64,000 bases of DNA, from assembly GCA_965116475.1 (NCBI GenBank), contig OZ220691.1:3483077-3547076 (forward strand), written 5' to 3'. Every line of letters begins with the position of its first letter. Position 1 is the first letter of the stretch. Under the pieces are notes generated by a model that was not told the origin of the DNA, ran no database searches, and was given only the letters and a program-made list of their open reading frames with translations. Source of the DNA: Gemmatimonadota bacterium. GTDB lineage: Bacteria > Gemmatimonadota > Gemmatimonadetes > Palauibacterales > Palauibacteraceae. Positions 4,066 through 58,877 of this stretch are shown one piece after another. The position numbers were made by a program, and so were the translations under genes.

Positions 4066-4069
4066 CGCC

Positions 4070-6477: not shown

Positions 6478-6484
6478 GGCACCC

Positions 6485-6778: not shown

Positions 6779-6814
6779 CGACGAACCTGCTGTAGGGCGC
6801 CGGGTGCCGGGCCG

Positions 6815-7618: not shown

Positions 7619-7824
7619 TTGCCTGGGTTCATCGTGGCGCCTCGATCGCGTGGCGCGGCGCCCTGGCCGCGCCGTGTCCCACCCCGTCTTCCCGTCCGCC
7701 CGGCCCCGGGCGCGGATCGGCGATGGGCAGGTAGATTATCGGTTCGCGCGCCCCGGGGCGAAGGCTTAGGATGTGCCGCGCGACGGGCCGCTTTCCGGCC
7801 TGCCGGACCACGAGGACCTGGACG

Positions 7825-8964: not shown

Positions 8965-9419
8965 CGGGCGGCGGCGCCCGCCCGCGGCGGTCGGGCCGGG
9001 TCGACGGCGCCACGTGGACGCTGTACGACGCCGGCCGGGCGCCGTCCGGCCTCGGGCTCGGCTACTTCGTTTGCGACGACCCGGAGGTGGCGGACCGGCG
9101 GGCGGCGCTTCCCGCGGGGCTGGTCCTCGCGGATCTCGACGACGACGCCTTTCGCGCGTTGTGGGAGGCGGGACGACCGCTCACGGGGACCGAGCGCCGG
9201 GTCATCGACGGCAGCGGAGCGATCTGGCTTGCCCAGGGCCGGGGGCCGGTCTGGGCCGAGGGAGGGAGCGCGGCGGGTACCGTGGGCCTTCGCGTCCGCT
9301 GCATCAGCGCCGACCGCCCCGTGCTGGAGTTGAACGGCGCCTCGCTCTCCGGGATGTCGGACGCGGAACTGATCGCGCGGGTCGGCCCGCCTGAAGGAGT
9401 CGCGCCATCCTCCGATTGA
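8961..9419 (+). CDS. Hypothetical protein
   Basis: 152-aa ORF with 4-nt start-stop overlaps to E1-alpha and rnz; no recognisable motif. Confidence 0.4.
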   Translation: MTGGGARPRRSGRVDGATWTLYDAGRAPSGLGLGYFVCDDPEVADRRAALPAGLVLADLDDDAFRALWEAGRPLTGTERRVIDGSGAIWLAQGRGPVWAEGGSAAGTVGLRVRCISADRPVLELNGASLSGMSDAELIARVGPPEGVAPSSD

Positions 9420-12348: not shown

Positions 12349-12557
12349 CGCTTTTGCGGCCTGAATCTAAGTTAGCTTACTGTTCGAGGATCGGTGGCGG
12401 AAAAAGTGGCGCTCCGCCCCGCATCCTGTGGAGACTCGACACCAGGGGATCGGCCGGCGGCTGGGCGGAGGTGGTGAAGCTCGGTTGAGGTCGATTCTTT
12501 TTTGCCACGAGGCCCGGCGAGGCGCACGGTTGGCCCCGCGCGGGAACTTGATTCCCT

Positions 12558-40404: not shown

Positions 40405-42327
40405 GTGAGCGAGGGCGCAAAGGAGGGCGTGAGCGAACGGCGCGGGATCGTGATCGGCACGGCCGGCCATGTGGATCACGGCAAGACCGCCCTCGTGCGG
40501 GCGCTGACGGGGATCGAGACGGACCGCTGGCTGGAGGAGCGGAAGCGGGGACTGACGATCGACCTGGGCTTCGCGCGGCTCGACCTCGATCCCGGCCTGG
40601 AGACGGGGATCGTCGACGTCCCGGGGCATGAGGACTTCCTCAAGAACATGCTCGCCGGCGCCACGGGCATCGACGCCCTCCTCCTCGTCGTGGCGGCGGA
40701 CGAAGGGCCGATGCCGCAGACGCACGAACACCTTGCGATCGCGCGTCTCTTGAACATCCGGCGCGGGGTCGTCGCGCTTACGAAGCGCGACCGGGTGGAT
40801 GAGGACTGGCTCGAGCTCGCGAGCGAGACGACCCGGGAAGTGCTGGATGAGGATCCCGCGCGGGCGTCATGGGAGATCGTGCCGGTCTCCGCCCTGACGG
40901 GCGACGGGATCGAGCCCCTGCGGGCCGCGCTGCGCAGATCGACGGCGGGGATCCGCGCGCGCCACGTCGATGACCGTTTTCGCCTCCCGGTCGACCGTTC
41001 GTTCTCGATCCGCGGTACCGGTACCGTGGTGACCGGCACTGTGTGGAGCGGCGCCGTCCGCGTGGGCGACACCGTGAACGTTTTTCCCGGGGGTGACTCG
41101 GCCCGCGTGCGCGCGCTCCAGGTGCACGAAGACCCTCGTCGGCGCGTCACCGCCGGCCGCCGGTGCGCCGTCGCACTCGTCGGCGTCACGCCGGTCGCGG
41201 TGGAGCGGGGCAGCGTGCTCGTGGACCCGTCCGAGTGGACGCCGAGCGAGCGTCTCGGCGTCCGGGTACGGGCGCTCGGGAGTCGCGACCGGCCTCTCCA
41301 CCATGGACAGCGTCTCAGGGTCTACCTGGGCACTCGTGAAGTCATGGCCCGGCTCCAAACGGTTGATCGCCGGCCCGTCGCACCCGGGGCGACTGCCTGG
41401 GCCGTGCTTGCCCTCGAGGCGCCGCTCCTCGCGCGGACCCGCGACCGGGCCATCCTCCGCTTCTACTCGCCGGTGACGACGATCGGCGGGATACGCGTGG
41501 CGGAACCGAACCCGCCGCCCGACTGGTCGGCGCGGACGGAAGCCTGGCGGCGGATTCTCGATGGCGCCCCGGCCGAGGCGGTCGGCGCGGCCGTAGCGCT
41601 GGAGGGCCTGCGCGGGCTCCCCGTCGCGACATCATCGATCCGCCTCGGATGGCGAGCTCCCACGCTCGAGACGGCCGCCGAGGAGGCCGGCTGCGTGCGC
41701 ATCGGCGAGCGCTGGTTCGCCGCCGATGCGGTGGCGGAGGCCATGGAGGTCGTGGAGGAAAGCATGGCCCGCCTCCACGCCGCGGACCGCCGTGCCCCCG
41801 GCGTTTCGAAGGAGGCCGTGCGCTCGGCGATGGCGCCGGTCTGCGATCTCGCACTGGCGGAGACCGCCCTCCGCCGACTCCTCGCGGATCGTCGCCTCCT
41901 CGAGCGCGGCCCGCAGCTCGCGCTTCCGGGCCATGGGCCCCGCCTCACTCCGCGCGAGGAAGAGGGGCGCCGGCTACTCGCCGGGACGATCGAAGCCGCC
42001 GGGCTGCAGCCGCCGCTCGTCACGGAACTGGGGAAGACGGTGCACCTGGACCGTGCCGTGCTCGATGACCTTCTCCGGCTGCTGCAGGAATCCGGCATGA
42101 CGAAGGCCGTGACGCCCGAACTGCACGTCGCCGCCGGGGCTCTGGAGGCGATGGAGGCGCGGGTGCGAGAGCTGCTCGCCGATGGCGCGCCGGCCCCTCC
42201 CGCGCGGTTCAAGGAAGCGTTCGGGCTCTCCCGGAAGTACCTGATTCCGCTCCTCGAATACCTGGACCGGGAAGGCGTGACCCGTCGAACCGCGGAAGGG
42301 AGAGTTCTCGCCCGCCCGCCCGGCTGA
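40405..42327 (+). CDS. selB: Selenocysteine-specific elongation factor SelB
   Basis: GTPase G1 [11 protein letters not shown]; 640 aa with C-terminal winged-helix extension typical of bacterial SelB. Confidence 0.9.
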
Positions 42328-43351: not shown

Positions 43352-43721
43352 GGGGGCGACACGGCTTCGACGCGTGAACCGGAAGCCGCGGAAGCGTGCC
43401 GAGGTGCCCGGGGCCTCGTTAAACACCGGGAAACCTTTAGGTGCCAACGACGGTTTGGCTCTGGCTGCGTAAAACCACGTAGCCCGTCCCCGAGAGGTCC
43501 GGGCCCGAGGACCTCCCGACGGACGTCGATGAATCGGGCTGGTCACCCCGGCGTGCCGTGAGCCGCGGGTGACGAGAGCACGGCGAGAGCCGCGCGCACG
43601 GCTGGTTTCGCAAGGGTTTGTTCGTGAACCCTCGCGGGACGAGACCTGATCACGGACTACGCACGTAGATGCCGTGGCGGATGGGCTCGCGGACGCGGGT
43701 TCGATTCCCGCCGCCTCCACT
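43352..43721 (+). ncRNA. ssrA: tmRNA (SsrA), tag peptide (A)ANDGLALAA
   Basis: 5' GGGGGCGACACGGCTTCGACG pairs with 3' GGTTCGATTCCCGCCGCCTCCA acceptor/T-arm. Internal ORF GCC AAC GAC GGT TTG GCT CTG GCT GCG TAA at 43443-43472. CCA is not encoded. Confidence 0.85.
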
Positions 43722-44318: not shown

Positions 44319-45299
44319 CTAGAAGACCCGGATCGGCGGGATGAACCTGCCCGGGTCGGCCCGCACCTCGGCGAGGAACACGTTCAGGTCCACCACGATC
44401 TTGAGGAACTCCTCGTATAGCGTCGCATCGGCGAGGAGTTGCCCGACCGCCCCTTCGCCGTTTTCGATGAGGCTCAGGATGGAGTTGGCCCGGGTCGCCG
44501 AGGAAGCGAGCGCGCGATACAGGGAGTCCGACGCCAGCAGACGCCCAAGCGTCCCTTCGCCCGCCGCCAGCGCCCCCGTCACCGTGTCGAGGCGGGCGGT
44601 GGAGGACACGAGGCCATCGTAAAACTCCTCATCCACAAGCAGGCGGGCCAGCGAGCCTTCCCCGTCCGCGATCGGACCCAGGACGGCCGCGAGGTTCTCG
44701 TTGAGTTCGACGAGGCCGTCGTAGAGCGCTTCGTCGACGAGGAGGCGCCCAAGCGACCCCTCGCCGCTCGAGACGCGGGCCAGCGTTGCGGAAAGATCGT
44801 TCGAGAGCTGCGTGAGACCGAGGACGGCGTCGGCCGCCTGCCCGAGGAGTTCGTCGTAGCTCAGCGCCGGCGCCGTTCCGATGGTGTCTCCGGGCACGAG
44901 GATGGCCGAATCGGGAGATCCCGGTTCGATGTCGATGAGACGGTCGCCGAGCAGTCCCTGCGTCCGCACGCGGGCTCTCGAGCCGCGCCGAACCTGCTCC
45001 CGGACCTCCACGTTGACCCCGAGCCAGACCGCGACGGCCGCTTCCGAGTCGCCGCGCTCCTCCGGCGCGATGAACTCCACGCGCTCGACCTGGCCGACGC
45101 CCCTCCCGGCCACCTGGACGGGGGCTCCGGGGCGGAGCCCGGAAGCGGACTCCATCAGCGCGACCAGCTGGTAGCGCTCGCCGAACACGTCCCCGATCCG
45201 GCCCACGAACAGCACGCACAACGCGAGCAGGACGAGGGAGACGATGAGGACGAACCCCACGCGCATCTGATCCCAGGTGATCGGCTCCGATCGTCGCAT
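44319..45299 (-). CDS. mlaD: MCE-family protein MlaD
   Basis: N-terminal TM + MCE domain; C-terminal repeats GEGSLGRLLVDE x4. Confidence 0.8.
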   Translation of the reverse strand: MRRSEPITWDQMRVGFVLIVSLVLLALCVLFVGRIGDVFGERYQLVALMESASGLRPGAPVQVAGRGVGQVERVEFIAPEERGDSEAAVAVWLGVNVEVREQVRRGSRARVRTQGLLGDRLIDIEPGSPDSAILVPGDTIGTAPALSYDELLGQAADAVLGLTQLSNDLSATLARVSSGEGSLGRLLVDEALYDGLVELNENLAAVLGPIADGEGSLARLLVDEEFYDGLVSSTARLDTVTGALAAGEGTLGRLLASDSLYRALASSATRANSILSLIENGEGAVGQLLADATLYEEFLKIVVDLNVFLAEVRADPGRFIPPIRVF

Positions 45300-47654: not shown

Positions 47655-47750
47655 GGGAGCGGATGGTGACTGGTGTCGCCTGCGGTCTTCAAAACCGTTA
47701 CGGGGCGTTCGCGCGTCCCGGGTGGGTTCGATTCCCACACGTTCCCGCCA
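47655..47750 (+). tRNA. selC: tRNA-Sec (anticodon UCA)
   Basis: 8-bp acceptor GGGAGCGG; 6-bp D-stem GGUGAC/GUCGCC with 4-nt D-loop; anticodon loop CUUCAAA (UCA); long variable arm with UUCG loop; T-arm GTGGGTTCGATTCCCAC; encoded CCA; selB lies 5 kb upstream. Confidence 0.75.
47735..47750. repeat. attL core: 16-bp direct repeat CCACACGTTCCCGCCA (3' end of tRNA-Sec)
   Basis: Identical 16-mer recurs at 58324-58339; similarity extends to CGAT five bases further left. Confidence 0.8.
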
Positions 47751-47804
47751 GATCATTAGCGAAGTGCTCTTATAACAACGATTTACAGATGTTCAAGCGG
47801 GCGA

Positions 47805-47827
47805 GTACCCCACCGGGTACCCCAAAA
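47805..47827. promoter_or_regulatory. Putative integrase arm-type sites (GTACCCC x2, second followed by AAAA) near attL
   Basis: GAGTACCCCACCGGGTACCCCAAAAG; same motif repeated three times near attR (58141-58190). Confidence 0.4.
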
Positions 47828-47840
47828 GTGGGAGTGTGAC

Positions 47841-48347
47841 GTGTCCGTGAGATCGCCCCTCCAAGACCCTGGGTCTTTCCGTTCATGGATTCAGGAGATG
47901 ATCGAGGTGACCGGATTGGAGTGGGAGCCGAAAACGGTCCATGTCGTTCTCGCAGACCTTCCCTTGATCGCGAAGGCGACGTACTTCAACGCGTGGTTGG
48001 CGGGCCAGTTCTTCCGCGAAGATGATGTGGGGTGGCTCTCGTCGGTGATCAGCGACATCGACCTGGAGTGGTGGCCGTTCGAGGAGAACGACCTTGGCGT
48101 TCTCCGACACCAGATCGAAAGCCACTACAACGGCCAGTTTCCGCAAATCATGAGTGCTGCGCACGCGGAATGGACTACGTTCGCCGCCGATGTCCGCATG
48201 GCCTTCATCGCCTGCTTCACTGACCACGGCTGCCGACGTTGCCCACCTTGGTGCCAAGCTCTCCGAGACGAGCTGGAGGCACGTGCGAACCCCAGCAAAG
48301 AACCCAATGACTCGGAGGGTGAGCCGGAAGCGCCGGCCTCTGGATAA
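47841..48347 (+). CDS. Hypothetical protein (island cargo, only + strand gene of the element)
   Basis: 168-aa ORF, lower GC, no recognisable motif; GTG start. Confidence 0.4.
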   Translation: MSVRSPLQDPGSFRSWIQEMIEVTGLEWEPKTVHVVLADLPLIAKATYFNAWLAGQFFREDDVGWLSSVISDIDLEWWPFEENDLGVLRHQIESHYNGQFPQIMSAAHAEWTTFAADVRMAFIACFTDHGCRRCPPWCQALRDELEARANPSKEPNDSEGEPEAPASG

Positions 48348-48351
48348 GGAT

Positions 48352-48762
48352 CTACCCGCGCTTTCGCTGCCGGTCTTCGAGGGCAACCTCAGGATTGAGC
48401 CGGCGGCGGTCGATCCCGGCGAAAGGCCGGGTCTCTCCCGGCTGACGCTGGATGGCCAGCCACAGATCCGCCGCAGCGCGCCCGTACTTCTTCTCCAACC
48501 GCCCGCGCTTCAGCGCCAGCCTGGAGGCCTCCCGGCAGCGAGCGCAGAGACTGAAGTCCGCATCCTCGCGTTCCCGACCGCACCGGCACAGGCCGGCGGC
48601 ACGGCGTGCTGCGTGGCTCTCGGCGATCGTGCCTCGATACGTTTCCCGGCAGGTCTTGCAGTAGATCCCGTGGGTGGCCGGAGCGCCGCCGCAGTTCGCA
48701 CACAACCCATCGCGTTTCCAGCTGCGTCTCTTGTCCCGCACCCAGTCTGCGGCGTAGCTCAC
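48352..48762 (-). CDS. Hypothetical Cys-rich protein (four CxxC pairs)
   Basis: CANCGG...CKTC...CRC...CARC; GTG start overlapping upstream stop (GTGA). Confidence 0.35.
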   Translation of the reverse strand: MSYAADWVRDKRRSWKRDGLCANCGGAPATHGIYCKTCRETYRGTIAESHAARRAAGLCRCGREREDADFSLCARCREASRLALKRGRLEKKYGRAAADLWLAIQRQPGETRPFAGIDRRRLNPEVALEDRQRKRG

Positions 48763-49112
48763 CTCGTGCGGGCTGCGAGCCTGGCGGCCTCGCTCTTCAC
48801 GAGCGCGGTGGCGATGGCCTGACTGACGGCCTCCACGCCCTCGATGGATGGCTCCAGCCACTCGTACTTGCCCCCCAAGTGCTCGGCGACCTCGAGGAAC
48901 AGGCCGGGGCGTTTGCCGGCTCCCACGCGGGCCAACGTCGTGCTCACAACTTCGTAGGAGATCGAGCGGGCGGTCACACCCGTGTCCCTCGCGATCCGCC
49001 TGCGGGCGAACCTGACGACCTCCTCGGCCAGCTCCTCAACGATCTTCTCGGACATGCGGTCGAGCGCCCGATGGTGCTGCCGGAGGTTGGACTCGAACTT
49101 GACCGGCGTCAT
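48759..49112 (-). CDS. Phage head-tail/neck protein, HK97 gp10-like (tentative)
   Basis: ~117 aa, position and size in the neck module; ATGA overlap with upstream gene. Confidence 0.35.
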   Translation of the reverse strand: MTPVKFESNLRQHHRALDRMSEKIVEELAEEVVRFARRRIARDTGVTARSISYEVVSTTLARVGAGKRPGLFLEVAEHLGGKYEWLEPSIEGVEAVSQAIATALVKSEAARLAARTR

Positions 49113-49543
49113 ATCCCCAGCCTCTCCCGGATCGCCGCCGCCGAGTAGACGCGCGACCGGAAGACGATCCCGGCGTAACGGTGGCGACCGGCGTCGGCGA
49201 TGTCCCAGCCGCCGGCGAGGGTGCGCCACGGGCCGCTCTGCAGGTCGGAGGTTCCAAGGTGGAAGCCGCGGAAGAATCGCTGGATGGCCTCGCGGACTTG
49301 GGCGGCGTCTCCCGGATCCCGGAAGGTCTCGACGGTGACGGCGACGCGGGCCAAGTAGCCCGGACTTTGGTCGATGGTCTCGAGGTCGCGGGAGCCGCCA
49401 TCCTCCACAATGACGCGGATCTCGTCGGAGGTCTTCTCGAGTGGGCGCGAGGGCTGGCCGACGATCACGGTCACCACGTAATCCCCCGAGAACGCGGAGT
49501 CCAAACCGTCCCGAATCGTGGCCAGCACCTCGGCCTCAATCAT
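49109..49543 (-). CDS. Hypothetical phage neck/head completion protein
   Basis: 144 aa between the head-tail joining and gp10-like genes; no motif. Confidence 0.3.
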   Translation of the reverse strand: MIEAEVLATIRDGLDSAFSGDYVVTVIVGQPSRPLEKTSDEIRVIVEDGGSRDLETIDQSPGYLARVAVTVETFRDPGDAAQVREAIQRFFRGFHLGTSDLQSGPWRTLAGGWDIADAGRHRYAGIVFRSRVYSAAAIRERLGI

Positions 49544-49880
49544 CGATCTCCAGCCAGACCCGCACCGTGCCGCCGCGCTGAGGCTCGGCCTCGACCACCT
49601 TCCAGATCCGATCTCCGGACTCGAGCGTCACGTCCTCGGCGGTGACGTCACCCGTCCAGTCGCTGGGCATGAGATGGGCGGAGGTCTTCGATCTGGTCTC
49701 GCCGCCCGGCTGGGCGTCCTCGAAGAAGCGCGCCGAGGTGACGATGGCGCGCGTCTCGCGTGCCTCCAGTAGCGTTCCGGACATCTCCCTACCCATGGCG
49801 TCCAGCGCACCGCGTTCGCGCCGCGTGAGGGTCGCGGGGACGCCCAGCGCCTCGATCAGCGCGGGAGCCGGGGCTCTCAT
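49536..49880 (-). CDS. Phage head-tail joining (adaptor) protein (tentative)
   Basis: 114 aa directly downstream of portal; C-terminal IWKVVEAEP...VRVWLE resembles head-tail joining family. Confidence 0.4.
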   Translation of the reverse strand: MRAPAPALIEALGVPATLTRRERGALDAMGREMSGTLLEARETRAIVTSARFFEDAQPGGETRSKTSAHLMPSDWTGDVTAEDVTLESGDRIWKVVEAEPQRGGTVRVWLEIDD

Positions 49881-50935
49881 GCCAGTCCCGCCTTCTCCAG
49901 TGCCTCATCCAGAGACAGGCCGCTCTCGACGAACTGCTTCAGCGCGCGGCCTCGGGCGGCGAGATCGGACGCGGCGAGACCGCCGAAGGAGAACTCCAGC
50001 GAGGTCTCCAGCACGCGGGCGATCTCGTTCTGGACGCGCACTGCGACCGGCGCGACGCCGAGGAAGACGAACTGCCGGTAATCCTCCCTGCGCGTGGTCC
50101 CGTCTCCACCCGGCATCACGAGCGAAGCCGGGACGCCTGCGGCGCTGGCCACGGTCGAGATCGCATCGCGCCTCAGCGCGATCAGCGAGTCCGGAGGGTT
50201 CGCGCCCAGCCTGGCTGGCACGAGATCGCGCCGTGGCGCTGAACCCGCGTCGCCCCAGCCGCCAGCTACGGTCTCCGTGAGGACGGTGCTCCCCTTGGCG
50301 TCTCGGATGTCGTCTCTGAGCGTGTCGAGATCGCTTGTCTCCGGTCCCTGCGGAACCGGGAGGAGATGGGCCGCCACGCCGCCGGCTTCTTGGCCCAGCC
50401 GCATCTCGAGGGCCGAGAGGAGATCTCCCGAGAGACCGGCCAAGGGCGACAGGCTGCGCCACGGCTCGGCTGCTCGCGGTGCCCACATGAGGTGGATGAC
50501 CGAGTCGCGAGGCATCCATCGCGTCTGGATCTTCGACGGGGCGGACGTGGTGACGTGGTACCGCCACGACGCGGGAGACGGGCCGCCCCAGACCGTCCAA
50601 CTGCTCGCCACCGACAGCATCGGCGGGACGTCGAAGGCCAGGACGATCTCTCCCTGCAGGATGAGCTCCCGGCCGACGAGATCCAGCACCTCGGGCGTCA
50701 CCAGCATCTTGGCGAGTTCGTCGCCCTCGACCTCGGCCGATGACAGCGCCCTCGCCCAGAGATCGCCGAGCGCCTGTGCGGTCCCGGTCTCGTTGACGCG
50801 ACCTGCTGGGCTCTCGGAGCCGGACGCCGACGCGGCGATCAGAGAGACCAGCGCATCGGTGTACGAACTCCGAACTTCCGCCGTCTTCCGCTGCCACGGG
50901 AGCCTCATAGCGCGAGACCTCGGCGCTTGACCCAC
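49877..50935 (-). CDS. Phage portal protein (HK97-family-like)
   Basis: 352 aa; C-terminus DLAARGRALKQFVESGLSLDEALEKAGL matches the conserved portal C-terminal pattern. Confidence 0.55.
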   Translation of the reverse strand: MGQAPRSRAMRLPWQRKTAEVRSSYTDALVSLIAASASGSESPAGRVNETGTAQALGDLWARALSSAEVEGDELAKMLVTPEVLDLVGRELILQGEIVLAFDVPPMLSVASSWTVWGGPSPASWRYHVTTSAPSKIQTRWMPRDSVIHLMWAPRAAEPWRSLSPLAGLSGDLLSALEMRLGQEAGGVAAHLLPVPQGPETSDLDTLRDDIRDAKGSTVLTETVAGGWGDAGSAPRRDLVPARLGANPPDSLIALRRDAISTVASAAGVPASLVMPGGDGTTRREDYRQFVFLGVAPVAVRVQNEIARVLETSLEFSFGGLAASDLAARGRALKQFVESGLSLDEALEKAGLA

Positions 50936-51210
50936 TGAGACAGCAAAGACGCCGCGCCAGACGCTCGCAGGGCAGCTCTGGAGGCCGCGACGTACTCGGT
51001 CTCCACGTCACCCACCCGGACGCGCCTGGCGGCCGCTGGGGCGTCTCTTAGGTACGCCGCCACCCGGATCGCGGCTTCGTTCTCCACCGCCGCAGGCGGT
51101 TCTCCCTCGCCGGTGTGTTTCTCGACAAGACCGGCGGCGACCTCGGCAAGACGCGTTGCGTTGTCACCTCCCCCGAGGGCCGAGGCCACCACCGATCGCT
51201 CTACAGCCAT
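50905..51210 (-). CDS. Phage gp6-like head-tail connector protein
   Basis: ~100 aa; NATRLAEVAAGLVEKHTGE...AAIRVAAYL pattern of Phage_connect_1; start at internal Met. Confidence 0.45.
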   Translation of the reverse strand: MAVERSVVASALGGGDNATRLAEVAAGLVEKHTGEGEPPAAVENEAAIRVAAYLRDAPAAARRVRVGDVETEYVAASRAALRASGAASLLSQWVKRRGLAL

Positions 51211-52139
51211 ATGCGCCTCCTGCGGCGGGCCGGGCGCGTGATCTCCAGCGGAGCGAGTTCTCCCGTTTCGCCGGTCACCAGCGCCAGCTCGATTGCGCGG
51301 ACGTCCATCTCGGAGACGTCGTAGAGGTCTCCCGCGACCTCGGCCACCGAGGTCTCCTCCGGTGCCCACGGGCGCACGCTCCAGAATCCCGTCTCGGAGG
51401 AATCGAGGAAGGCGCGTCCGGCGTCGTTGTCGGTGATCTGGTCGATCTCGATCCGGAGTTCATCGTCGAGAACCCGGAGCCTCAGTCCGGCACCGGTGGC
51501 GGCGACCGGCTCGGAGAATCTTCCAGACATGAACGCCGTGATCGTCCGCCGTCCCTCGGCTGCCTCGCGGAGCGCTTTGTCCAGCGCCTTCCGCCCGATG
51601 CGGATCCGCGCACAGCCGGTCTTGCACCTGCACGGCAGCTGGCGGCCCAGCGGCACCCGACCGGAGACCCGCGTCCCGCCGATCGTGCGCCGGCGCAGCT
51701 CCACCCGGTTCGGAAACACCGGCGAATCCACCAATCCCAGACCGAGGAGACGTCCGCGCTCGATGACGCGGACTCCGCCCTCGGTCTGCTCGCTCAGCGC
51801 ATCGAACTCGAGACTCGTGCCCGTGAGCTTCCCGGCGGCCACCAGCGCTCGGATCTCGGGCGTGATCTGCGCGCGGAACTCCATGCCGCCGGCGGTGGTG
51901 TCCCGGAACCGGAGAGAGCCCTCTGGGTGGAAGCTGGAGTCGATCCCATGTCGGAAGTCGTGCTGGACGTTCAAGAGGACGCGCACCTCGGACGCTGGCC
52001 CGAACGCGCCGGGCTCGAACCGCTCCCCAAGGCCGTGCGGCGTGTTCGCGGGCGGGGCGGTGATCCCGGGATCGAACACCATCCCGGAGATCTCGCCGGC
52101 GTCCGCGCTCAGCCCGGAGACGAAACGGAACTCGCTCAC
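51201..52139 (-). CDS. HK97-family prohead serine protease (S78), extended C-terminus
   Basis: GMVFDPG...ERFEPGAF, LLNVQHD, GKLTGTSLEF motifs; 312 aa is longer than typical. Confidence 0.7.
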   Translation of the reverse strand: MSEFRFVSGLSADAGEISGMVFDPGITAPPANTPHGLGERFEPGAFGPASEVRVLLNVQHDFRHGIDSSFHPEGSLRFRDTTAGGMEFRAQITPEIRALVAAGKLTGTSLEFDALSEQTEGGVRVIERGRLLGLGLVDSPVFPNRVELRRRTIGGTRVSGRVPLGRQLPCRCKTGCARIRIGRKALDKALREAAEGRRTITAFMSGRFSEPVAATGAGLRLRVLDDELRIEIDQITDNDAGRAFLDSSETGFWSVRPWAPEETSVAEVAGDLYDVSEMDVRAIELALVTGETGELAPLEITRPARRRRRIWL

Positions 52140-52374
52140 CAGAGGGCGAGGATCGTGGCCGTCGAGGAGGCGCGCACCGCCGAGACGGCGACCGGAATCA
52201 CCATGATCGACGCCGTCACTGTGAGCGCCGGCGCGTCCGCATCATCGTCCGGCAACCGGATCGTCAGATCGCCGTCGCTGAGGACGATGAACGCCCGCGC
52301 CGGGGGATCGAACACGCTCTCCTGCCCGGCGACGGTCGCCTCGCTCGCCTGCGCCGAGTAGATGGCCCAACGGC

Positions 52375-53616
52375 TCAAGTGACGAACTTCAGCCTGGCGA
52401 AGTTGGACGCCCGCGGGAGCTTGAATCCCCAGCTGTACTGCAACGTCAGCGAGATCTCATCCGAGGCTGCCTTGGTGTATGGATCTCGAATCAGCCGGCC
52501 CTCCCGCCAGACGCACGCGACGCCGGCGTTCACGATCCCGCGCTTGCGTCCGATGAAAGCGCCGAACTTGCCGTTCGATGTGGCCGTCTCGATGTCGCCG
52601 CGCACCATCCAACTGAGGCCGTTCGCCATCAGGAATTGCCTCAGCGTCATGTTGTCGGCGGCCGAGTTGATGACGGTGGAGTGCCACAACGTGTTCGCGC
52701 CGACGGAGGCCACGATCGCCAGATCTCCGGGGCTGGCGGCGTGCTTTCCGTCGATCAGCTCGGCGAACTTCACCAGCGTCTCCGGCCCCTTGATCTTGTC
52801 CGCCTGCTTGATCGTCTTCTCGACCATGTCGGCGGCGGTCTGGAGACCGGTGATGTCGGCGGCGTTCTCGTTCGCCCCGTCGTCTCCCAGGAAGACCGCG
52901 CGGTCGATCCCCTCGGCCATCGCCATCCGCAGATCGCGCCGGAGCGCCTGCTCGAGGCCGGGGATCCTGTCCGCGTCGACGCCGTTGAACACGGCGCGTG
53001 CGCGGTTGCCGGTCGGCTTGATCTCGGTGACGCCGATCGTCCACGCGGCGTCTGCCGCGTCCTCGGCCCGGCCGCGCTGCGCCGCCGAGGCCCCCGCCGT
53101 CGTGACCGGGTAGCTCGCGATCCCCGGCGCGCAGGAGGCGAACGTCACGCCCAGATGCATCGCGGCGGTGTCAGCGAACAGCCGGTCGATCCATGGGCGC
53201 TGGACGACCGTCGACTCGGCGTCCGTCGAGGCGCGAACCTCGGCTGGCGTCGGCTCGTCGAGAAGGAGCTCCAGCGGGAATGACCGGCGGCCCATGCCGA
53301 ACGCGTCGTTCAGCTCGCCGGCGGCTCCGTCCACGCCGCGTCCGTCCATCGCGGCCTCGAAGTAGCCGCCCACGTCCACCCGGCGGCGAATGGCCCGGAT
53401 CTCGGCCGCCTCGCCGTCCTCCACTGTGGGCTCCGGCTCCTCGGCCTGCGCGGCGATCAGCGCCCGGCGCTTGGTCTCGACGGAGCGCAGCTCGGCGGTG
53501 AGCTTGTCCACCTCCTGCTGCTGCTCGTCGGAGAGATCTCCGGCGGTCTGGCCGAGATCGTTGAGTTGCTGCCGGAGCTCGGACGAACGGAGCTCGGCGC
53601 GTTGCAGATCGGTCAT
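52375..53616 (-). CDS. Phage major capsid protein, HK97 family, with N-terminal delta (scaffold) coiled coil
   Basis: Coiled-coil N-terminus; FLGDDGANENAADITGL, LRMAMAEGIDRAVF and C-terminal region align with HK97 gp5 motifs (LLNGDGTGDNLEGL etc.). Confidence 0.75.
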   Translation of the reverse strand: MTDLQRAELRSSELRQQLNDLGQTAGDLSDEQQQEVDKLTAELRSVETKRRALIAAQAEEPEPTVEDGEAAEIRAIRRRVDVGGYFEAAMDGRGVDGAAGELNDAFGMGRRSFPLELLLDEPTPAEVRASTDAESTVVQRPWIDRLFADTAAMHLGVTFASCAPGIASYPVTTAGASAAQRGRAEDAADAAWTIGVTEIKPTGNRARAVFNGVDADRIPGLEQALRRDLRMAMAEGIDRAVFLGDDGANENAADITGLQTAADMVEKTIKQADKIKGPETLVKFAELIDGKHAASPGDLAIVASVGANTLWHSTVINSAADNMTLRQFLMANGLSWMVRGDIETATSNGKFGAFIGRKRGIVNAGVACVWREGRLIRDPYTKAASDEISLTLQYSWGFKLPRASNFARLKFVT

Positions 53617-53734
53617 TCTCTCGTCCCTTCGCGCGGCCAGGCAGCCACGCTCCTTCCGGGACGAAGAAGGGCCGCCATAGCTCAGTTGGTGCGTTCTCCA
53701 ATTCGCTAAGGCGACCCCGAAAGGTCTCCGCAAT

Positions 53735-54334
53735 TTAGGGTCCGGCCAGCTCCTCTACAAGCTGCCTCCAGCCGGCGTCTTCCTCCCGTCGGTGGCGGGC
53801 GAAATGGCACGAGACGCAGAGCGTCCGGAGGTTCGATGGATCGTCGGTGCCGCCGTCTCTCAGTGGCGTCTCGTGGTGGACCTCGAGCCGTCCTGGCTGG
53901 CCGCAGTCCCGGCAGCGGTGGCCGTCTCTCTGGAGGATCTTCCGGCGCAACTGAGCACCGGCGCGGCCTCTCAGACGACGGCGGATCGAAGTCTCCGAGA
54001 CGGACGGGACCGACGCCGATGCGCCTCGGCGACGCACAAGGCCAACGCCACGGCGAGATCGTCTCTGCGCCGGAGGGTGGTACGGCGGATCTTGGCGTTC
54101 CCGGCCTCGTCCGTAGCCGTCTTGGCGTTCGCCAGGCACACCCTCAGGGCGAGATTCGTTGGTGCGGCCAGCCAGTCTGCAGCGGCAAGCCGGAGGCGGC
54201 GCAGATCGTTCGCGCCGTCCTTGAAACCCATCCCGCGCAGCTTCAGCGGCACCGACTGACCGAGCGTGGCCAACGCCTCGCGGATCGAGGCCTCCCGCCA
54301 CCGGTCGGCTACGATCATCGCCGGGACGCCCCAC
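53735..54334 (-). CDS. HNH endonuclease (C-terminal HNH domain; start uncertain, overlaps TerL 3' end)
   Basis: HRCRDCGQ...EVHHETPLRDGGTDDPSNLRTLCVSCH; no ATG downstream of the TerL stop. Confidence 0.6.
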   Translation of the reverse strand: MGRPGDDRSRPVAGGLDPRGVGHARSVGAAEAARDGFQGRRERSAPPPACRCRLAGRTNESRPEGVPGERQDGYGRGRERQDPPYHPPAQRRSRRGVGLVRRRGASASVPSVSETSIRRRLRGRAGAQLRRKILQRDGHRCRDCGQPGRLEVHHETPLRDGGTDDPSNLRTLCVSCHFARHRREEDAGWRQLVEELAGP

Positions 54335-55443
54335 CGCTCGAACGCCTCGGTCAGCACACCCCCGACATCGACCTCGAACGTCCCGTGCAGGGACAGCTCC
54401 TTCCTGGCTCGCATCTTCTCATACAGGGAGCCGACGTTGTGCTCCTTTCCGCGCCGCATGAGGTCTGGATCTCGCGGGAAGACCAGAAAGCCGTCCGCGG
54501 CTCCCGTGGCCGGCCAGCAGACGGCCGCGCCGGTGGCCTGCGTGGTGGAGAGATCGAGACCGAGCACCGGGCGACCCGAGCGCAGCGCAGTCCGTCCCTC
54601 GCAGCGCGTCCACGTCCCGGCGGACAAGACCTGCTCCTCGGCTACGCCGATCCCGCCGAGGTTCAAGTGGAGCTGCAGGTATCTGGCCAGCGCCTCGGGA
54701 CTCTCTCTGGCCAGCTTCGCCTGCTTCTTCACCTCGCGGGCGAGGTGCGGCCAGAACTTCATCGATGGATTCGCTCTGTGCATGGCCGCCGCGCGAAATG
54801 GATCCTCGTCTTCCTCGGCCGCGTAGCAGATCGCCCGCTCCTTCTGGAGTTCGGCCTCGAAGGGATGGCCGGAGCCTGCCGGCGGTCGCGTCCCGGTGTA
54901 GATGATCCGCGCCTCCATCTTGGCCTTCGCCGTGTCGAGCGCGGCGATCATCTCGTCCACCGTTGGCCAGCTCGTGACCTCGTCGCAGACGATGAGCGCG
55001 GGCCGCAGACCCATGGCGCGCTTCGGGTCGCTTCCGATGGCCAACACCCGGCGGCCCGTCTTGAGGTCTCGGATCTCCGAATGCTGGAGGCTGTCGGCGA
55101 TCCTGTACCGCTTCCGGTCTCCCAGCTTCACTACCTGCTCCAGATACCGGCGGGTGTCTTGGTAGACGATCCGCGTCTGCCGGTGGCTCGCGGCGACGAG
55201 AATGATGTCGGAGCCCTTCGGGGCTAGCTCCAGAACGGGATCGAAGTACGCTCCCGCCACGATTGACGCCCAAGCGCTTTTTCCGTTGGCGCGGGCCATG
55301 CTCAGCGCGAAGTCGCCGGGAGTATCGAGACGCTTCCACGCTTTTCTCTGCCACGGCATCGGCTGGAGCGCCCTCCCGGCCATCGGACCGTCCAGAACGG
55401 TCAGACCAGATGCCCACCGGGAAACCTTCGTCGAGGTCAACAT
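53971..55443 (-). CDS. Terminase large subunit
   Basis: Walker A ARANGKSAW, Walker B LIVCDEV, C-terminal RNaseH-like nuclease region (GLDLS, MIVADRW). Confidence 0.8.
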   Translation of the reverse strand: MLTSTKVSRWASGLTVLDGPMAGRALQPMPWQRKAWKRLDTPGDFALSMARANGKSAWASIVAGAYFDPVLELAPKGSDIILVAASHRQTRIVYQDTRRYLEQVVKLGDRKRYRIADSLQHSEIRDLKTGRRVLAIGSDPKRAMGLRPALIVCDEVTSWPTVDEMIAALDTAKAKMEARIIYTGTRPPAGSGHPFEAELQKERAICYAAEEDEDPFRAAAMHRANPSMKFWPHLAREVKKQAKLARESPEALARYLQLHLNLGGIGVAEEQVLSAGTWTRCEGRTALRSGRPVLGLDLSTTQATGAAVCWPATGAADGFLVFPRDPDLMRRGKEHNVGSLYEKMRARKELSLHGTFEVDVGGVLTEAFERWGVPAMIVADRWREASIREALATLGQSVPLKLRGMGFKDGANDLRRLRLAAADWLAAPTNLALRVCLANAKTATDEAGNAKIRRTTLRRRDDLAVALALCVAEAHRRRSRPSRRLRSAVV

Positions 55444-55542
55444 ACCGGAGGCTCTGCTGCAGAAGCGTGACTACGCCAACGGTGTCCGGCGGTCACGGAG
55501 GGCTCCGAACAGGGGTCCCCGAGGAGCTGGGGCGGGCCACAT

Positions 55543-55989
55543 TCATTCGCCCGGCAGGCGCGGTACGTAGACGGCCCATAGCCACGGCGCTCCGTCACGG
55601 CGCGCGGCCGTCACGCGATGTCGTCCAAGCAGCACTTCAACCGGGCGCGAACTATCGTCGCCCAGGACGACGATCGGCGGGCCGTACTGACCACCGGACA
55701 GGTTCTGGAGCCGCTTCTCGTCCAAGCGCGATACGTCGAATTCCATGATGCGAGTCAGCGGTAGCCCTCTCCTTGGGAGCGTCTCCGACATCGCCTCCAT
55801 GATCCGCGTCTTCGTGTTGGCGACAGCCGCCGCCACGTCCGGCCAGTCTTCAGCGGTAGTGTCTTGCTCTTCGAGGAACCACCGCTCCAACCGGCGAAAC
55901 CAACGGAGCAATTCGTCGGCTTCGCAGTCTTCACCTTGCAGCCGGTTCTCCACTTGGTCCCGGTATCGGAGGATGCTGGTATTGGACAT
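55543..55989 (-). CDS. Hypothetical protein, possible small terminase / ParB-like nuclease domain
   Basis: Position immediately upstream of TerL; LLGRHRVTAARRDG resembles ParB/Srx motif; weak. Confidence 0.3.
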   Translation of the reverse strand: MSNTSILRYRDQVENRLQGEDCEADELLRWFRRLERWFLEEQDTTAEDWPDVAAAVANTKTRIMEAMSETLPRRGLPLTRIMEFDVSRLDEKRLQNLSGGQYGPPIVVLGDDSSRPVEVLLGRHRVTAARRDGAPWLWAVYVPRLPGE

Positions 55990-56324
55990 CACCCCAGACC
56001 GTACTCGTCCCACGCATGGACGATCTCGAAGAGCGCACCGATCTCAGACTTCGTGAGCGCCCGGAGGTCGTCCAATCCACCGTCACCTTCGACCGACTTT
56101 GGTATCAGACGCCCGAGTTCGCCCGCCCACTCCAGCAGCTGCGCGACCGACACGCCGTGCCGTTCACAGCGCCCGTACACGTAGTACACCTGCTTCTCGG
56201 TTGGTGACTCCGGGTGCAACGCATTCTTCGCGATGATCGTCTTATCTGTGGACTCTACCGCATCCCGCCAGCTCCCTGTGGGCTGCCCAGAGCTGCCGTT
56301 GTCTCCCTCACGTGTCCCTGTCAT
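55989..56324 (-). CDS. Hypothetical small protein (possible regulator)
   Basis: ~111 aa from internal Met; first gene after a 570-bp non-coding region downstream of int. Confidence 0.3.
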   Translation of the reverse strand: MTGTREGDNGSSGQPTGSWRDAVESTDKTIIAKNALHPESPTEKQVYYVYGRCERHGVSVAQLLEWAGELGRLIPKSVEGDGGLDDLRALTKSEIGALFEIVHAWDEYGLG

Positions 56325-56897
56325 CGATCTCCTCCCTCTCTCCAGTCGCCGGGGCGCACCTCTCCCTATTTTGTTCTCGGCCTCGCCGGTTCTCCCTCTA
56401 ATTGTCTGAAGCGATGACCGGCCCGGTGAGGGACAGCAGCAGACCGAGGGCCAGCCCGGGCCGTTGCGAAAGGGAGGCATGGTTTCGTCTCCCACGGTAT
56501 CCGAGTTGGTGTCTCGGCCTGCTGAACATGACCTGGCGGAGCCGGGCATAGCAGGCTGTGGGAGCTGCTTCCCTCCGGCCTCTCGACCGGAGCCAGCCGC
56601 CTCGCTCTCCCACTTCGACCTCGAGGCCTCATCTCGGCGCTATTGGCTGGATGCCCTTCCCGGTGCGCCACTCTCTCGCATTCCCGCGCCGGTGGGTGGA
56701 CCCTCTCCTCCACGGTTCAGCGTTCCAACGATCCCACGCATAACACGACCGGCCGATTCTCGCCAATGGTTCGGTCAGCGTCGGAGGATGTGAATCATGG
56801 ATGCAAGAAACCCCGAGACGAGAGGTCTTTTGGGAGAGCTTCGCCTCGGGGCTTCCTGCACCGGCCCAAGGAAGAATCCTCGAGCGCGTCCACAATC

Positions 56898-58121
56898 TCA
56901 GTCGCTTGTCACCGGCGCAACGTACTCGGCCCATGCCTCCATCACCGGACGCCGACGCTCGAGGAGATCGCTGCGCTGGTAGGCCCGCACGACGGCGTTT
57001 CGCTCGACATGACCGAGGATCGCCTCGGCCACTGCGAAATCGACGCCCGTATCTTCACACCAACTGCGCATGGAGGTTCGCAAACCGTGCGGCGTGGCCG
57101 GGACGTCGAGACGCCTGAGGAGCTGGAGAAACGCCATCTTGCTGAGGGGCCGATCAGCGCCAGCGCGCGGGCGAGAGGAAGGGAAGACCCAACCGGTCCC
57201 GCCCCAGCGCGCCTGGGCGTCTTCTAGCACCCTCAGGGCGCAATCTGCGAGCGGTACGCGGTGAGACCTACCTGACTTCGTCCGGAGGCTCGGAATCGTC
57301 CAGATCGCGTTCTCCAGGTCGATCTCGTCCCACGTCATCTCTCGGACCTCGCCGGTCCGAACTCCCGTCAGCGCCAAGAACGTGAACGCCGAGCGCGTCA
57401 CGCGGTCGGCGGTGGACGCCTCGACCATCTCGAGCAGGCCGGCGATCTCGCTGTGGTGCAGGGCCGGGTGGTGACGCTTCACGCGGCTGGCGTGACGCGG
57501 CAGCACCGTGAGGAGGTGGCGGCCCGCCGGGTTGTCGGTTCGGTGTCCCATCGCGACGGCCATCTCGAACGTCCTGGCCAGCCGAGCGCGGACCCTCCGG
57601 GCGGTCTCCTGCTTCTCCTCCCAGAAGCCGCGGGCCTGAAGCACCCGCGCCACGTCGGCGGACGTCACCTCGTCAACGCGCATCGCGAGCAGCGGATCGG
57701 CGTATCTGGTCACCGAGTTTCGCCACTGGCGCTCGCTATCGGGAGACCTCCAGCGGGGTTTCTCCCGGGAGATCACCGCCTCGAAGACCTCGCCCACCGT
57801 CGGGACGACCCCCTTCGGCTGCTCGGTGGCCGGAGGCTTAGCCTTCCGCCGGCGCGGATCCTCTCCGGCTTCGACCGCCGCGAAGTTCCGGAACGCCTGT
57901 TCTCGGGCCTCCCTGAGGCTCACCGCCGGCCACGTTCCCAAGCCGAGGGTGGTTTGCTTGCCGTTGATCTTCACCTTCTGTATCCACCGGCGTCTGGCGG
58001 TTCGGTCCGACGTGGGCCGGACGAGGAGTGAAAGGCCGGCGTATCCGACGGCGTACTTTCGTGGGCCGCCTAGCGTCCCGATCTTCTTCTCGGTGAGGCG
58101 CACCAAGGGGCGTTTCGGCAT
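56898..58121 (-). CDS. int: Tyrosine-type site-specific integrase (P4-like, N-terminal arm-binding DUF4102-like domain)
   Basis: Catalytic box HGLRTS...ILGH...VRAYQR (Y); N-terminal arm-binding domain; ~200 nt from attR. Confidence 0.9.
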   Translation of the reverse strand: MPKRPLVRLTEKKIGTLGGPRKYAVGYAGLSLLVRPTSDRTARRRWIQKVKINGKQTTLGLGTWPAVSLREAREQAFRNFAAVEAGEDPRRRKAKPPATEQPKGVVPTVGEVFEAVISREKPRWRSPDSERQWRNSVTRYADPLLAMRVDEVTSADVARVLQARGFWEEKQETARRVRARLARTFEMAVAMGHRTDNPAGRHLLTVLPRHASRVKRHHPALHHSEIAGLLEMVEASTADRVTRSAFTFLALTGVRTGEVREMTWDEIDLENAIWTIPSLRTKSGRSHRVPLADCALRVLEDAQARWGGTGWVFPSSRPRAGADRPLSKMAFLQLLRRLDVPATPHGLRTSMRSWCEDTGVDFAVAEAILGHVERNAVVRAYQRSDLLERRRPVMEAWAEYVAPVTSD

Positions 58122-58140
58122 GGGGATCTCCGTTCGCTAT

Positions 58141-58190
58141 GGGGTACTCGTGCCTGCGAGTACCCCAAAACATGCCCCAAGTACCCCAAA
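58141..58190. promoter_or_regulatory. Putative integrase arm-type sites near attR (GGGGTAC inverted; GTACCCCAAAA x2)
   Basis: GGGGTACTCGTGCCTGCGAGTACCCCAAAACATGCCCCAAGTACCCCAAA. Confidence 0.4.
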
Positions 58191-58323
58191 CTCGCAACTC
58201 TAGAGGAGGCATGGAGTTCCGCATGAACATCCGACAACAGGTTCCGTATAATACATGATATCAACGAGTTGTGAATCATCCAGAAGTCCAATGAACATCA
58301 AGGGATTCGCGATTGTGCGATCA

Positions 58324-58339
58324 CCACACGTTCCCGCCA
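58324..58339. repeat. attR core: 16-bp direct repeat CCACACGTTCCCGCCA
   Basis: Identical to 47735-47750. Confidence 0.8.
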
Positions 58340-58344
58340 CCCTC

Positions 58345-58845
58345 GTGCTTGCGGCCGCGCTTCTGTCCGGGCTGGCCCTGGACCCGTTGCCGCTGCGCGC
58401 GCAGGATCCGCCGCCTCCCGTCGTCCCCGACTCGGCCGCCGCCGAAACGAGCCCTGTCGCCGACACGACGGGCCGGCGCCCGCCCATCTCCCCCCTCGGC
58501 GCCTTCGGACGCTCCCTGGTCCTTCCGGGCTGGGGACAACTGGAGGTCGGACGCCCCGCCCGCGGCGCTTTCTACTTCGCCGCCGAGTCCGTCTTTCTGT
58601 TCATGGTCTTCAAGTCCGACGCGCGGCTCTCCGCCGCGAAGGAGGAGATGCCGCCGAACGAAGAGCGGATCTCCAACCGCACGGGGCAGCGGGAGAACTG
58701 GATCGTTCTGGCCGGGTTCTTCGCCTTCCTGAGCGGCCTCGACGCCTGGGTGTCCACGCAGTTCTGGGACTTCGAGCCCTCGATCGGTCCGCCCGCCGAT
58801 GGGTCCGTCGGGATCGCGCTCGGTTTCAAGGTCGATTTCCCCTGA
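58345..58845 (+). CDS. Hypothetical secreted protein
   Basis: Signal-peptide-like LAAALLSGLALDPLPLRA after a GTG; the ORF track starts it at 58255, spanning attR, so the true start is probably downstream of the repeat. Confidence 0.4.
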   Translation: MLAAALLSGLALDPLPLRAQDPPPPVVPDSAAAETSPVADTTGRRPPISPLGAFGRSLVLPGWGQLEVGRPARGAFYFAAESVFLFMVFKSDARLSAAKEEMPPNEERISNRTGQRENWIVLAGFFAFLSGLDAWVSTQFWDFEPSIGPPADGSVGIALGFKVDFP

Positions 58846-58877
58846 AGGAGACCGGCGGCCCGCCCCGCCGTCGGGAC

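Follow-up and report, generated by a model that had tools for sequence, protein, structure and literature searches.

What kind of element carries genes for a phage head and none recognisable for a tail, and how would it move? The question is raised by a 10.6-kb island in the selenocysteine tRNA gene (tRNA-Sec, selC) of a Gemmatimonadota bacterium of the family Palauibacteraceae. The island lies in a 64-kb stretch of contig OZ220691.1 (assembly GCA_965116475.1, forward-strand positions 3,483,077 to 3,547,076; here called the window and numbered from its first nucleotide), where it occupies positions 47751..58339 on the - strand (10,589 bp with one copy of a 16-bp repeat counted). A sequence-only reading had compared it to phage-inducible chromosomal islands of the capsid-forming kind (cf-PICIs), satellites that build their own heads and steal tails, with a decayed prophage or a head module like that of gene transfer agents (GTAs) as alternatives. 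We conclude, at a probability of roughly 0.7, that its Candidatus Palauibacter host carries an integrated phage satellite, one that forms capsids, has no tail, and works like a cf-PICI. Candidatus Palauibacter is a Gemmatimonadota genus from marine and sponge-associated metagenomes (PMC10469786), and the window was assigned to it by exact matches to its flanking proteins. Experiments on capsid-forming satellites come only from Enterobacteria, with genomic evidence from some other Proteobacteria and from Firmicutes (PMC10085698; 10.1101/2022.09.08.507074), and our literature search found no paper that connects Gemmatimonadota or sponge symbionts with either cf-PICIs or other phage satellites.

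Insertion into tRNA-Sec

The target gene at 47655..47750 (+) was called as tRNA-Sec by ARAGORN and Rfam (RF01852, 79.7 bits), and it is intact in relatives with an empty site. Its last 16 nt (47735-47750) form the core of the left attachment (att) site, attL, and an exact copy of this tRNA-Sec 3' end forms the attR core at 58324..58339 (+). The 16-mer, CCACACGTTCCCGCCA, occurs exactly twice in the window, as had been claimed, and none of 100 dinucleotide-preserving shuffles contained two matches with 2 mismatches allowed. By way of the flanking LpxH-like phosphoesterase we reached contigs in which the site is uninterrupted, two from Ca. P. australiensis (L055, L056) and two from Ca. P. scopulicola (L058, L059). 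Around the empty site lie genes for an Mrp antiporter, LptE, a thioesterase, the phosphoesterase, a 197-aa protein, tRNA-Sec, RidA, MlaE/F/D, GreA, and the transfer-messenger RNA (tmRNA). In the alignment, CCACACGTTCCCGCCA at the end of the empty-site tRNA-Sec is followed directly by CCGTCGTGCTCGCGG, so that the left junction of the window is joined to the sequence after position 58339. Because the tRNA-Sec 3' end of the empty site continues into this sequence, the repeats are the true junctions and the insertion spans exactly 47751-58339. The 16-bp repeat is the crossover core, and insertion regenerated tRNA-Sec, leaving the 16-bp direct repeat.

These four Palauibacter loci, with the 16-bp repeat as their junction, supply the empty selC site that the sequence-only reading had suggested looking for. 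The repeats also hold as real ends in that no tail, lysis, or replication genes lie beyond them. The DNA outside is host housekeeping, with RidA and Mla to one side and, to the other, the LpxH-like phosphoesterase and Mrp. In the sister species, the empty site is flanked by these genes as well. Since the rest of the window held only housekeeping families, and no prophage or tail genes, there is no helper prophage nearby. The element also differs from its surroundings in composition. Its content of guanine plus cytosine (GC) is 67.0%, compared to 69.6% for the rest of the window and 68.4-70.7% for host windows of 10.6 kb, and in tetranucleotide usage it stands at an L1 distance of 0.286 from the host, compared to at most 0.147 for host windows. 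The lower GC content noticed earlier is thus real but modest, and it is concentrated at both ends of the element.

At the tRNA-distal end, in the same placement as in relatives, lies a P4-type tyrosine integrase of 407 aa (56898..58121, -), with Arm-DNA-bind_3, Phage_int_M, and Phage_integrase domains and a match to phrog_1 (4.8e-53). A motif scan found two copies of GTACCCCA(A/C) just inside attL (47804..47825, +) and three copies of GTACCCCA, one of them inverted, between the integrase start and attR (58139..58189, both orientations). These five are the only matches in the window, all of them in the element ends, and none of 100 shuffles reached five. Given the Arm-DNA-bind_3 domain of the integrase, it is plausible that the repeats serve as arm-type sites.

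Head and packaging genes up to the neck

Genes were called from frame analysis of GC content at third codon positions (GC3), Pfam, PHROGs, and the ENA gene calls on an identical contig. All lie on the - strand except one (47907-48347), which agrees with the layout described earlier. For head formation and packaging the gene set is complete, comprising TerL, HNH, capsid, protease, and portal. The order is TerL-HNH-capsid-protease-adaptor-portal-neck, which differs from the order in which the genes had previously been listed. The large terminase TerL (490 aa; 53971..55443, -) has ATPase and nuclease domains (Pfam TerL_ATPase and TerL_nuclease; phrog_9, 2.5e-44) and is approximately 24% identical to the TerL of HK022 and of actinophages. 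Its 3' end is overlapped by an HNH endonuclease of approximately 91 aa, whose start is approximate (53735..54010, -; Pfam HNH, 3.3e-12; phrog_589, 2.4e-20). The portal (343 aa; 49877..50908, -) matches Pfam Phage_portal above the gathering score (3.8e-10) as well as phrog_12, and it is conserved in the family of relatives described below.

The major capsid protein (413 aa; 52375..53616, -) matches phrog_10 (8.4e-7) and phrog_617 (2.2e-5), and Pfam Phage_capsid was matched by its relatives only, not by the window protein. An AlphaFold model from a 24-sequence alignment had an overall predicted local distance difference test score (pLDDT) of 44, with values of 70-86 for the N-terminal helices. 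Approximately 110 N-terminal residues are helical in this model, consistent with a delta or scaffold-like domain. Comparisons of the capsid profile with the PDB and, by hhalign, with HK022 gp5 were not significant. The prohead protease (312 aa; 51201..52139, -) had no Pfam match of its own and is assigned to type S78 by orthology. It has 53 homologues, and its orthologues in L002, L052-L054, and L062, likewise those in 7 of ten delimited relatives, match Peptidase_S78. Between capsid and protease lies an 80-aa protein (52136..52378, -) with no family match.

Next to the portal is a conserved 101-aa protein (50905..51210, -), a probable gp6-like head-tail adaptor, with 41 homologues at the same position in family loci. 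One of 23 members of this adaptor family matches Phage_connect_1 (7e-4), and hhalign against HK022 gp6 and a comparison with the PDB were not significant. The neck continues with head closure protein Hc1 (114 aa; 49536..49880, -; phrog_82, 2.8e-5), a fast-diverging 144-aa protein without family match that, by its position between Hc1 and Neck1, is presumed to be a neck component (49109..49543, -), and, as the last neck gene, an HK97-gp10-like Neck1 protein (117 aa; 48759..49112, -; PF04883, 9e-5; phrog_5, 1.7e-4). The gene calls made earlier were thus confirmed directly for integrase, TerL, HNH, portal, Hc1, and the gp10-like protein, and supported by weak matches or via relatives for capsid, protease, and adaptor.

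In HK022, the gp10-family gene is directly followed by the tail terminator and the major tail protein, and the module of the element ends exactly at its gp10-like gene, i.e., at the head/tail boundary of HK022. Pfam and PHROGs scans of the element gave no family match for tail tube, tape measure, baseplate, fibre, holin, or lysin, nor for repressor, AlpA, helix-turn-helix (HTH) proteins, primase, or helicase, in line with the absences first noted from the letters. No profile matched a small terminase (TerS). The element shares with HK97/HK022-type phages, which use cohesive ends (cos), the distantly related TerL, an HNH gene beside the terminase, an S78 protease, the N-terminal scaffold region of the capsid, Hc1, and the gp10-like neck protein. 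It differs from them in lacking TerS, tail, lysis, immunity, and replication genes, in its rearranged gene order, and in size (10.6 kb compared to 40 kb).

The closest relative, L060, is 83% identical at the nucleotide level over 6.4 kb. For the portal (0.18), the protease (0.19), the 80-aa protein (0.23), and the capsid (0.25), as well as for adaptor and Neck1, the ratios of nonsynonymous to synonymous substitution rates (dN/dS) against L060 lay in the range 0.18-0.35. The head genes are under purifying selection. Hc1 and the 144-aa protein are only 55% and 52% identical to their L060 counterparts, whereas their neighbours are 83-91% identical. The fast divergence of these two proteins parallels the tail-matching variation reported for cf-PICIs, whose adaptors and connectors diverge and decide on the choice of usable phage tails (10.1101/2025.02.11.637232). 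Two irregularities in close relatives were also seen. In L060 (1-1174), TerL is split into two open reading frames (ORFs), one of 159 aa and one of 231 aa, which reflects a true frameshift or else a sequence error, the contig being a 4x HiFi assembly. L001, otherwise identical to the window, has a 1-nt indel between the integrase and the capsid gene.

By tblastn, none of 50,697 phage genomes matched the capsid, and among the 2.9 million contigs of IMG/VR a single one, L061, carries it. The element is therefore no piece of an already known type of phage.

Relatives and rival explanations

At E ≤ 1e-5, more than 1,100 homologues of the capsid were found, and identities among the best 120 were 53-84%. 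A scan of one genome per species yielded 49 family loci in metagenome-assembled genomes (MAGs) labelled as Alphaproteobacteria (Rhodospirillales, Paracoccaceae), Gammaproteobacteria (Ca. Rariloculaceae, Immundisolibacterales), Gemmatimonadota, Acidobacteriota, Chloroflexota (Dehalococcoidia, Anaerolineaceae), and Binatia. The tail-less architecture recurs in approximately 45 loci from at least 5 phyla. Judged by isolate names, many of the relatives look as if they came from sponge-microbiome surveys. According to tblastn, most loci have the order integrase, a variable 2-3.5 kb, TerL-HNH-capsid-protease-adaptor-portal, and a few are circularly permuted, with integrase and att site between the HNH and capsid genes. 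Sixteen relatives are delimited by direct repeats of 14-56 nt from tRNA 3' ends, and their targets are eight tRNA types other than Sec (Ser, Leu, Lys, Thr, Met, Pro, Arg, and Ala). Thirteen of these 16 measure 9.5-10.9 kb, and such a narrow size class is what a constraint by capsid capacity predicts. Three of the four longer members (12-13 kb) carry insertion sequence (IS) insertions. The family is large and apparently undescribed, and its members most likely spread on tails borrowed from other phages.

Pfam was applied to ten delimited relatives, 136 ORFs in all. Of the 29 families matched, the 25 listed contained none for tail or lysis and included integrase, portal, S78, HNH, TerL, capsid, Phage_connect_1, HTH_17/AlpA, AAA_25, Replicase, and Zn_Ribbon_Prim. 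Several genomes hold 2-4 members in different tRNA genes, namely an Alphaproteobacteria MAG (CBDDDJ01) with L023, L026, L034, and L040, OZ253470 with L017 and L033, and CAXXWW01 with L029 and L030, whose capsid proteins are identical. As to individual insertions, an IS21-like IstB and a 510-aa partner split TerL in L021 (5948-8313), L011 has the same pair, and L042 carries a DDE_Tnp_1_4 transposase (7706-9043).

The IMG/VR member, L061 (UViG 3300012932_000040, 1-10194), has identical 99-bp ends and thus closes to a 10,095-bp circle. An integrase is missing from it, and it encodes a Replicase-PriCT_1-HTH protein. Because it assembles as a circle, the family also exists as a free replicon of approximately 10 kb, and L061 resembles a plasmid-like, episomal version of the head-only element. 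We had also considered contigs of 9-11 kb with capsid homologues as free genomes and rejected them on account of their ENA names (ctgNNN_3x_l) and the genes cut at their ends. The peak in contig sizes is not evidence, since these contigs are low-coverage, read-sized HiFi fragments and only L061 has a true terminal overlap.

These comparative data fit poorly with the two alternatives raised at the outset. A decayed prophage, i.e., a formerly tailed temperate phage stripped of its tail, lysis, and replication genes, could leave an integrase, a tRNA site, and head genes, as expected from the left arm of an HK97-like prophage, and the distant relation to HK022-type TerL would suit such an origin. 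Decay should, however, produce idiosyncratic deletions and pseudogenes, whereas the 16 delimited relatives, independently integrated in different tRNAs and phyla, have kept the same content at approximately 10 kb with intact ORFs. The order TerL-HNH-capsid-protease-adaptor-portal is unlike that of HK97-like phages, neither pseudogenes nor remains of tail genes were seen, and dN/dS stays well below 1. The phage genomes searched do not contain the capsid family, and a circular 10.1-kb member exists. We therefore regard decay of a tailed phage as very unlikely and largely refuted.

For a GTA-like head module, domesticated by the host to package host DNA, one might cite the head-only gene set, the small capsid capacity, and the frequency of the family in Alphaproteobacteria, where GTAs are known. 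GTAs of the RcGTA type indeed resemble the family in their small HK97-type heads and their abundance in marine Alphaproteobacteria. They differ in having tails, no integrase or att sites, vertical inheritance, and random packaging of host DNA. The element, in contrast, has its own integrase and att sites and no tail genes, is absent from the same locus in sister species, and deviates from the host in composition, and some genomes carry several copies in different tRNAs. Judging from HK97-type systems, HNH/cos-type packaging would moreover imply specific rather than random packaging. Domestication of this kind is scarcely credible here.

The gp6-like adaptor varies in length between family members. 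In several relatives it is the N-terminus of a protein of approximately 350-764 aa (L061, a 764-aa ORF; L024 5038-6954; L020 12092-13765; L048 11202-12533; L029/L030 ~12115-13230), while the window copy has the 101-aa adaptor only. The C-terminal extension is rich in Ala, Pro, and Thr and in beta structure, has no Pfam match, and may be a neck or head fibre.

The element could conceivably be self-sufficient, with a capsid used without phage tails, its tail-less DNA-filled heads being taken up by other routes or docked to tail-like machines of the host such as tailocins or contractile injection systems. In favour of this are the 350-764 aa extensions, the integrase-less episome with its own replicase, and the outcome of a helper search, in which homologues of the gp10-like neck protein numbered three among 5.8 billion proteins, all in sister elements. 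Against it, the adaptor, head-closure, and gp10-like genes are what joining a siphovirus tail requires, and the window copy has only the short adaptor. To our knowledge, there is no precedent for a capsid-using element that works without phage tails. Self-sufficiency is therefore highly improbable in our view.

A further rival is suggested by the region between integrase and TerL, which in the window copy measures 1.45 kb and holds two small genes, as minimal as first perceived. In relatives, the corresponding interval is 2.5-3.5 kb, and many of them have AlpA/HTH_17 together with AAA_25 primase-helicase, Replicase, or DUF5906 genes adjoining the integrase, i.e., a PICI-like int-alpA-rep left end that the window copy lacks. 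When accessory proteins of the relatives were searched against the element by tblastn, only the zinc-ribbon family described below matched, and no remnant of alpA or primase-replicase (pri-rep) genes was found.

One of the two small genes, directly upstream of TerL, encodes a 148-aa protein (55543..55989, -) with an N-terminal three-helix bundle and a ParB/sulfiredoxin (Srx)-fold domain bearing the motif GRHRVTAARRDG. Its remote homologues, of which an exhaustive search with HMMER returned 45, are mostly 93-198 aa long, with approximately 8 much larger and multi-domain, and have in common the motif PIVV…DGRHRVxAAR. Foldseek aligned the C-terminal half of its AlphaFold model (pLDDT 93.8) with ParB, sulfiredoxin, and Noc as well as with many ParB/Srx proteins of phages, and its sequence profile matches SbnI and ParB in the PDB. 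On this modelled fold, the protein is a candidate DNA-recognition or packaging accessory factor rather than a canonical TerS. The other gene encodes a 111-aa orphan (55989..56324, -; ENA call) with a strong Shine-Dalgarno sequence, GGGAGGAG, and no match in searches of family loci, Pfam, and PADLOC.

The window copy might accordingly be a defective, non-autonomous derivative that lost alpA and pri-rep and persists as an island, maybe mobilisable in trans. The short interval with its two small genes, the missing remnants, and the fact that the exact proteins of the window element were found on only 2 contigs speak for this. On the other side, all its ORFs for head, packaging, and integrase are intact and, against L060, under purifying selection. 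Moreover, a recognisable rep gene is present in only about half of the relatives, the 111-aa gene retains its strong Shine-Dalgarno sequence, and the 148-aa protein belongs to a conserved family. The copy also has a size typical of the family, with other genes at its far end, which suggests that it was remodelled within a limit on packaged size and did not decay. We judge a defective derivative to be unlikely.

The highest capsid identity across phyla was 67.5%, and identities had a median of 52% across groups and 60% within them, so clustering by host group is shallow. We looked for recent cross-phylum transfer and, with this maximum, found no evidence of it. A wider form of the satellite reading, which we put forward as doubtful, would make the family an ancient, independently evolved capsid-forming lineage and a vehicle of gene transfer across phyla, a fourth origin besides the three reported for cf-PICIs. 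Its head module might circulate among at least 5 phyla cohabiting sponge and other marine holobionts, tail-less DNA-filled heads might disperse and take any compatible phage tail, and some members might now live as integrase-less episomes while others fused a fibre-like domain to the neck adaptor.

Known satellites and a possible life cycle

Compared to cf-PICIs such as EcCIEDL933 and KpCIDSM30104 (10.1101/2022.09.08.507074, 10.1101/2025.02.11.637232, PMC10085698), the element is likewise an integrative island with the integrase at one end. Both encode their own HNH, TerL, portal, protease, capsid, and adaptor or connector, have no tail or lysis genes, are far smaller than phages, and have neck proteins that diverge faster than the head proteins. 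The relatives of the element are cf-PICI-like in a further respect, with alpA and a primase-replicase adjoining the integrase. Differences are the size (approximately 15 kb for cf-PICIs compared to 10.6 kb), the gene order, and, in the window copy, the absence of alpA, pri-rep, and a recognisable TerS, along with a capsid that matched no phage genome. The hosts differ too, with the element family in Gemmatimonadota, Chloroflexota, Acidobacteriota, Binatia, and marine Proteobacteria and cf-PICIs in Enterobacteria, Pasteurellaceae, and Firmicutes. Finally, cf-PICIs have been tested by experiment with their helpers, whereas the element family is known from genes alone.

Measured against the SatelliteFinder core set for cf-PICIs (PMC10085698), the window copy has 8 of 11 components when these are judged by function and without the SatelliteFinder profiles, and none of the forbidden tail or holin genes; the cfPICI model of that program requires at least 9 of 11 profiles. 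The copy is a discrete island with an integrase at its end, an HNH gene beside the terminase, TerL, its own portal, protease, and capsid, and a neck, and it has no tail or holin. It lacks an AlpA-type (or MerR/Stl) regulator next to the integrase and a pri-rep gene. Because alpA, pri-rep, and a recognisable TerS are lacking, we do not file it as a cf-PICI member. Family synteny, size class, tRNA repeats, and dN/dS nevertheless strongly support the cf-PICI-like satellite that had been proposed from the letters, short of strict membership. By function, a cf-PICI builds small capsids of its own, fills them with nothing but its own DNA, and is transferred on helper tails, for which the 9.5-10.9 kb size class and the circular 10.1-kb member give indirect support.

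Other satellites are more distant. P4 and P4-like elements share with it an arm-binding integrase of the P4 family, a target at a tRNA 3' end, and a genome of approximately 11 kb that fits a small capsid. Unlike the element, P4 has no capsid, portal, or terminase of its own, relies on Sid to remodel the capsids of P2 and on the cos site and terminase of that phage, and has its own primase-helicase (alpha). Classical PICIs, including the Staphylococcus aureus pathogenicity islands (SaPIs), have the int-alpA-rep layout of the element's relatives, integrate at tRNA or att sites, depend on helpers, and measure 10-15 kb. They differ in using helper capsids; what they encode is limited to TerS, Rpp, or capsid-remodelling genes, and genes for TerL, portal, and capsid are absent.

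Several points weigh against the conclusion that the element is a working capsid-forming satellite. The window copy has no alpA, pri-rep, or recognisable TerS and could be non-autonomous, the search with the neck protein found no helper phage, and the hosts are uncultured MAGs. The capsid fold draws on weak profile matches, with a poor AlphaFold model (pLDDT 44) and non-significant comparisons to the PDB and HK022 gp5, and the identity of the adaptor on one weak Pfam match in a relative. Excision, replication, and packaging of this copy are predictions from its genes.

If the element does work like a cf-PICI, its cycle would probably begin with induction at the time when a siphovirus-type helper infects the cell or is itself induced. 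The integrase would excise the element at the att core with the help of the GTACCCCA arm sites, and replication would fall to host or helper functions, the window copy having no rep gene of its own. Its own TerL-HNH would then cut and package the DNA in a cos-type manner, for which the ParB/Srx protein, the zinc-ribbon protein, or both could supply DNA recognition. The DNA would enter the element's own small capsids, sized for approximately 10 kb. P4, for comparison, packages 11.6 kb in a T=4 capsid. The neck proteins would dock the filled heads to tails made by the helper, and helper lysis would release the particles.

The strategy of building a head and stealing a tail is already known; what the family would add is its extension to Gemmatimonadota, Chloroflexota, Acidobacteriota, Binatia, and marine Proteobacteria, possibly with an additional independent origin of capsid-forming satellites. 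Such satellites may therefore be general in bacterial communities, uncultured symbionts included. With the match counts given above, this capsid lineage is invisible to phage databases, and virome and prophage predictors probably misfile or miss such elements. Family members are candidate vehicles of gene flow within sponge microbiomes, and the size class of approximately 10 kb together with the contrast between conserved head and fast neck yields testable predictions on capsid geometry and tail matching.

The remaining parts of the element are small. Beside Neck1 lies a Cys-rich zinc-ribbon protein of approximately 121 aa (48352..48717, -, in an ORF that extends to 48861) with weak DZR_2 and treble-clef matches. 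It has 7 homologues in family loci, in several of which the gene is directly upstream of TerL, and L060 has a 121-aa gene at the same position as the window copy. The single + strand gene (47907..48347, in an ORF from 47841; GC3 frame signal and ENA call) encodes a 146-aa orphan with no match in Pfam, PHROGs, or PADLOC and no homologue in family loci, possibly an accessory or regulatory gene. Defence cargo was considered for the orphan proteins and rejected, as PADLOC gave no match. Between the integrase and the packaging operon lies a non-coding, lower-GC region of 573 bp (56325..56897, -), a candidate regulatory region, replication origin, or cos region. It contains a hairpin with 20-nt arms at 56802-56860, directly after the integrase stop, and no convincing iterons were found in it.

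At the attR end, a sigma-70-like promoter match (58224-58252, +) is directed outward, toward the first host gene. That gene (58292-58846, +) encodes a secreted-looking protein of approximately 184 aa, and its called start lies within the element, while in the empty-site genomes the corresponding ORF call overlaps tRNA-Sec. Insertion may have altered the 5' end or the expression of this gene. On the other side, a 640-aa ORF (40405-42327, +) lies approximately 5 kb upstream of tRNA-Sec, where sister-species loci have a gene annotated as SelB. Within an MlaD-family gene (44319-45299), a 26-nt motif occurs four times (44434-44765) at a spacing of exactly 102 nt, which probably reflects a repeated helical unit of 34 residues in the protein. 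The tmRNA gene (43352-43720, +; ARAGORN and Rfam) lies approximately 4 kb upstream of tRNA-Sec, and its tag reads ANDGLALAA in the window and ANNGLALAA in Ca. P. scopulicola.

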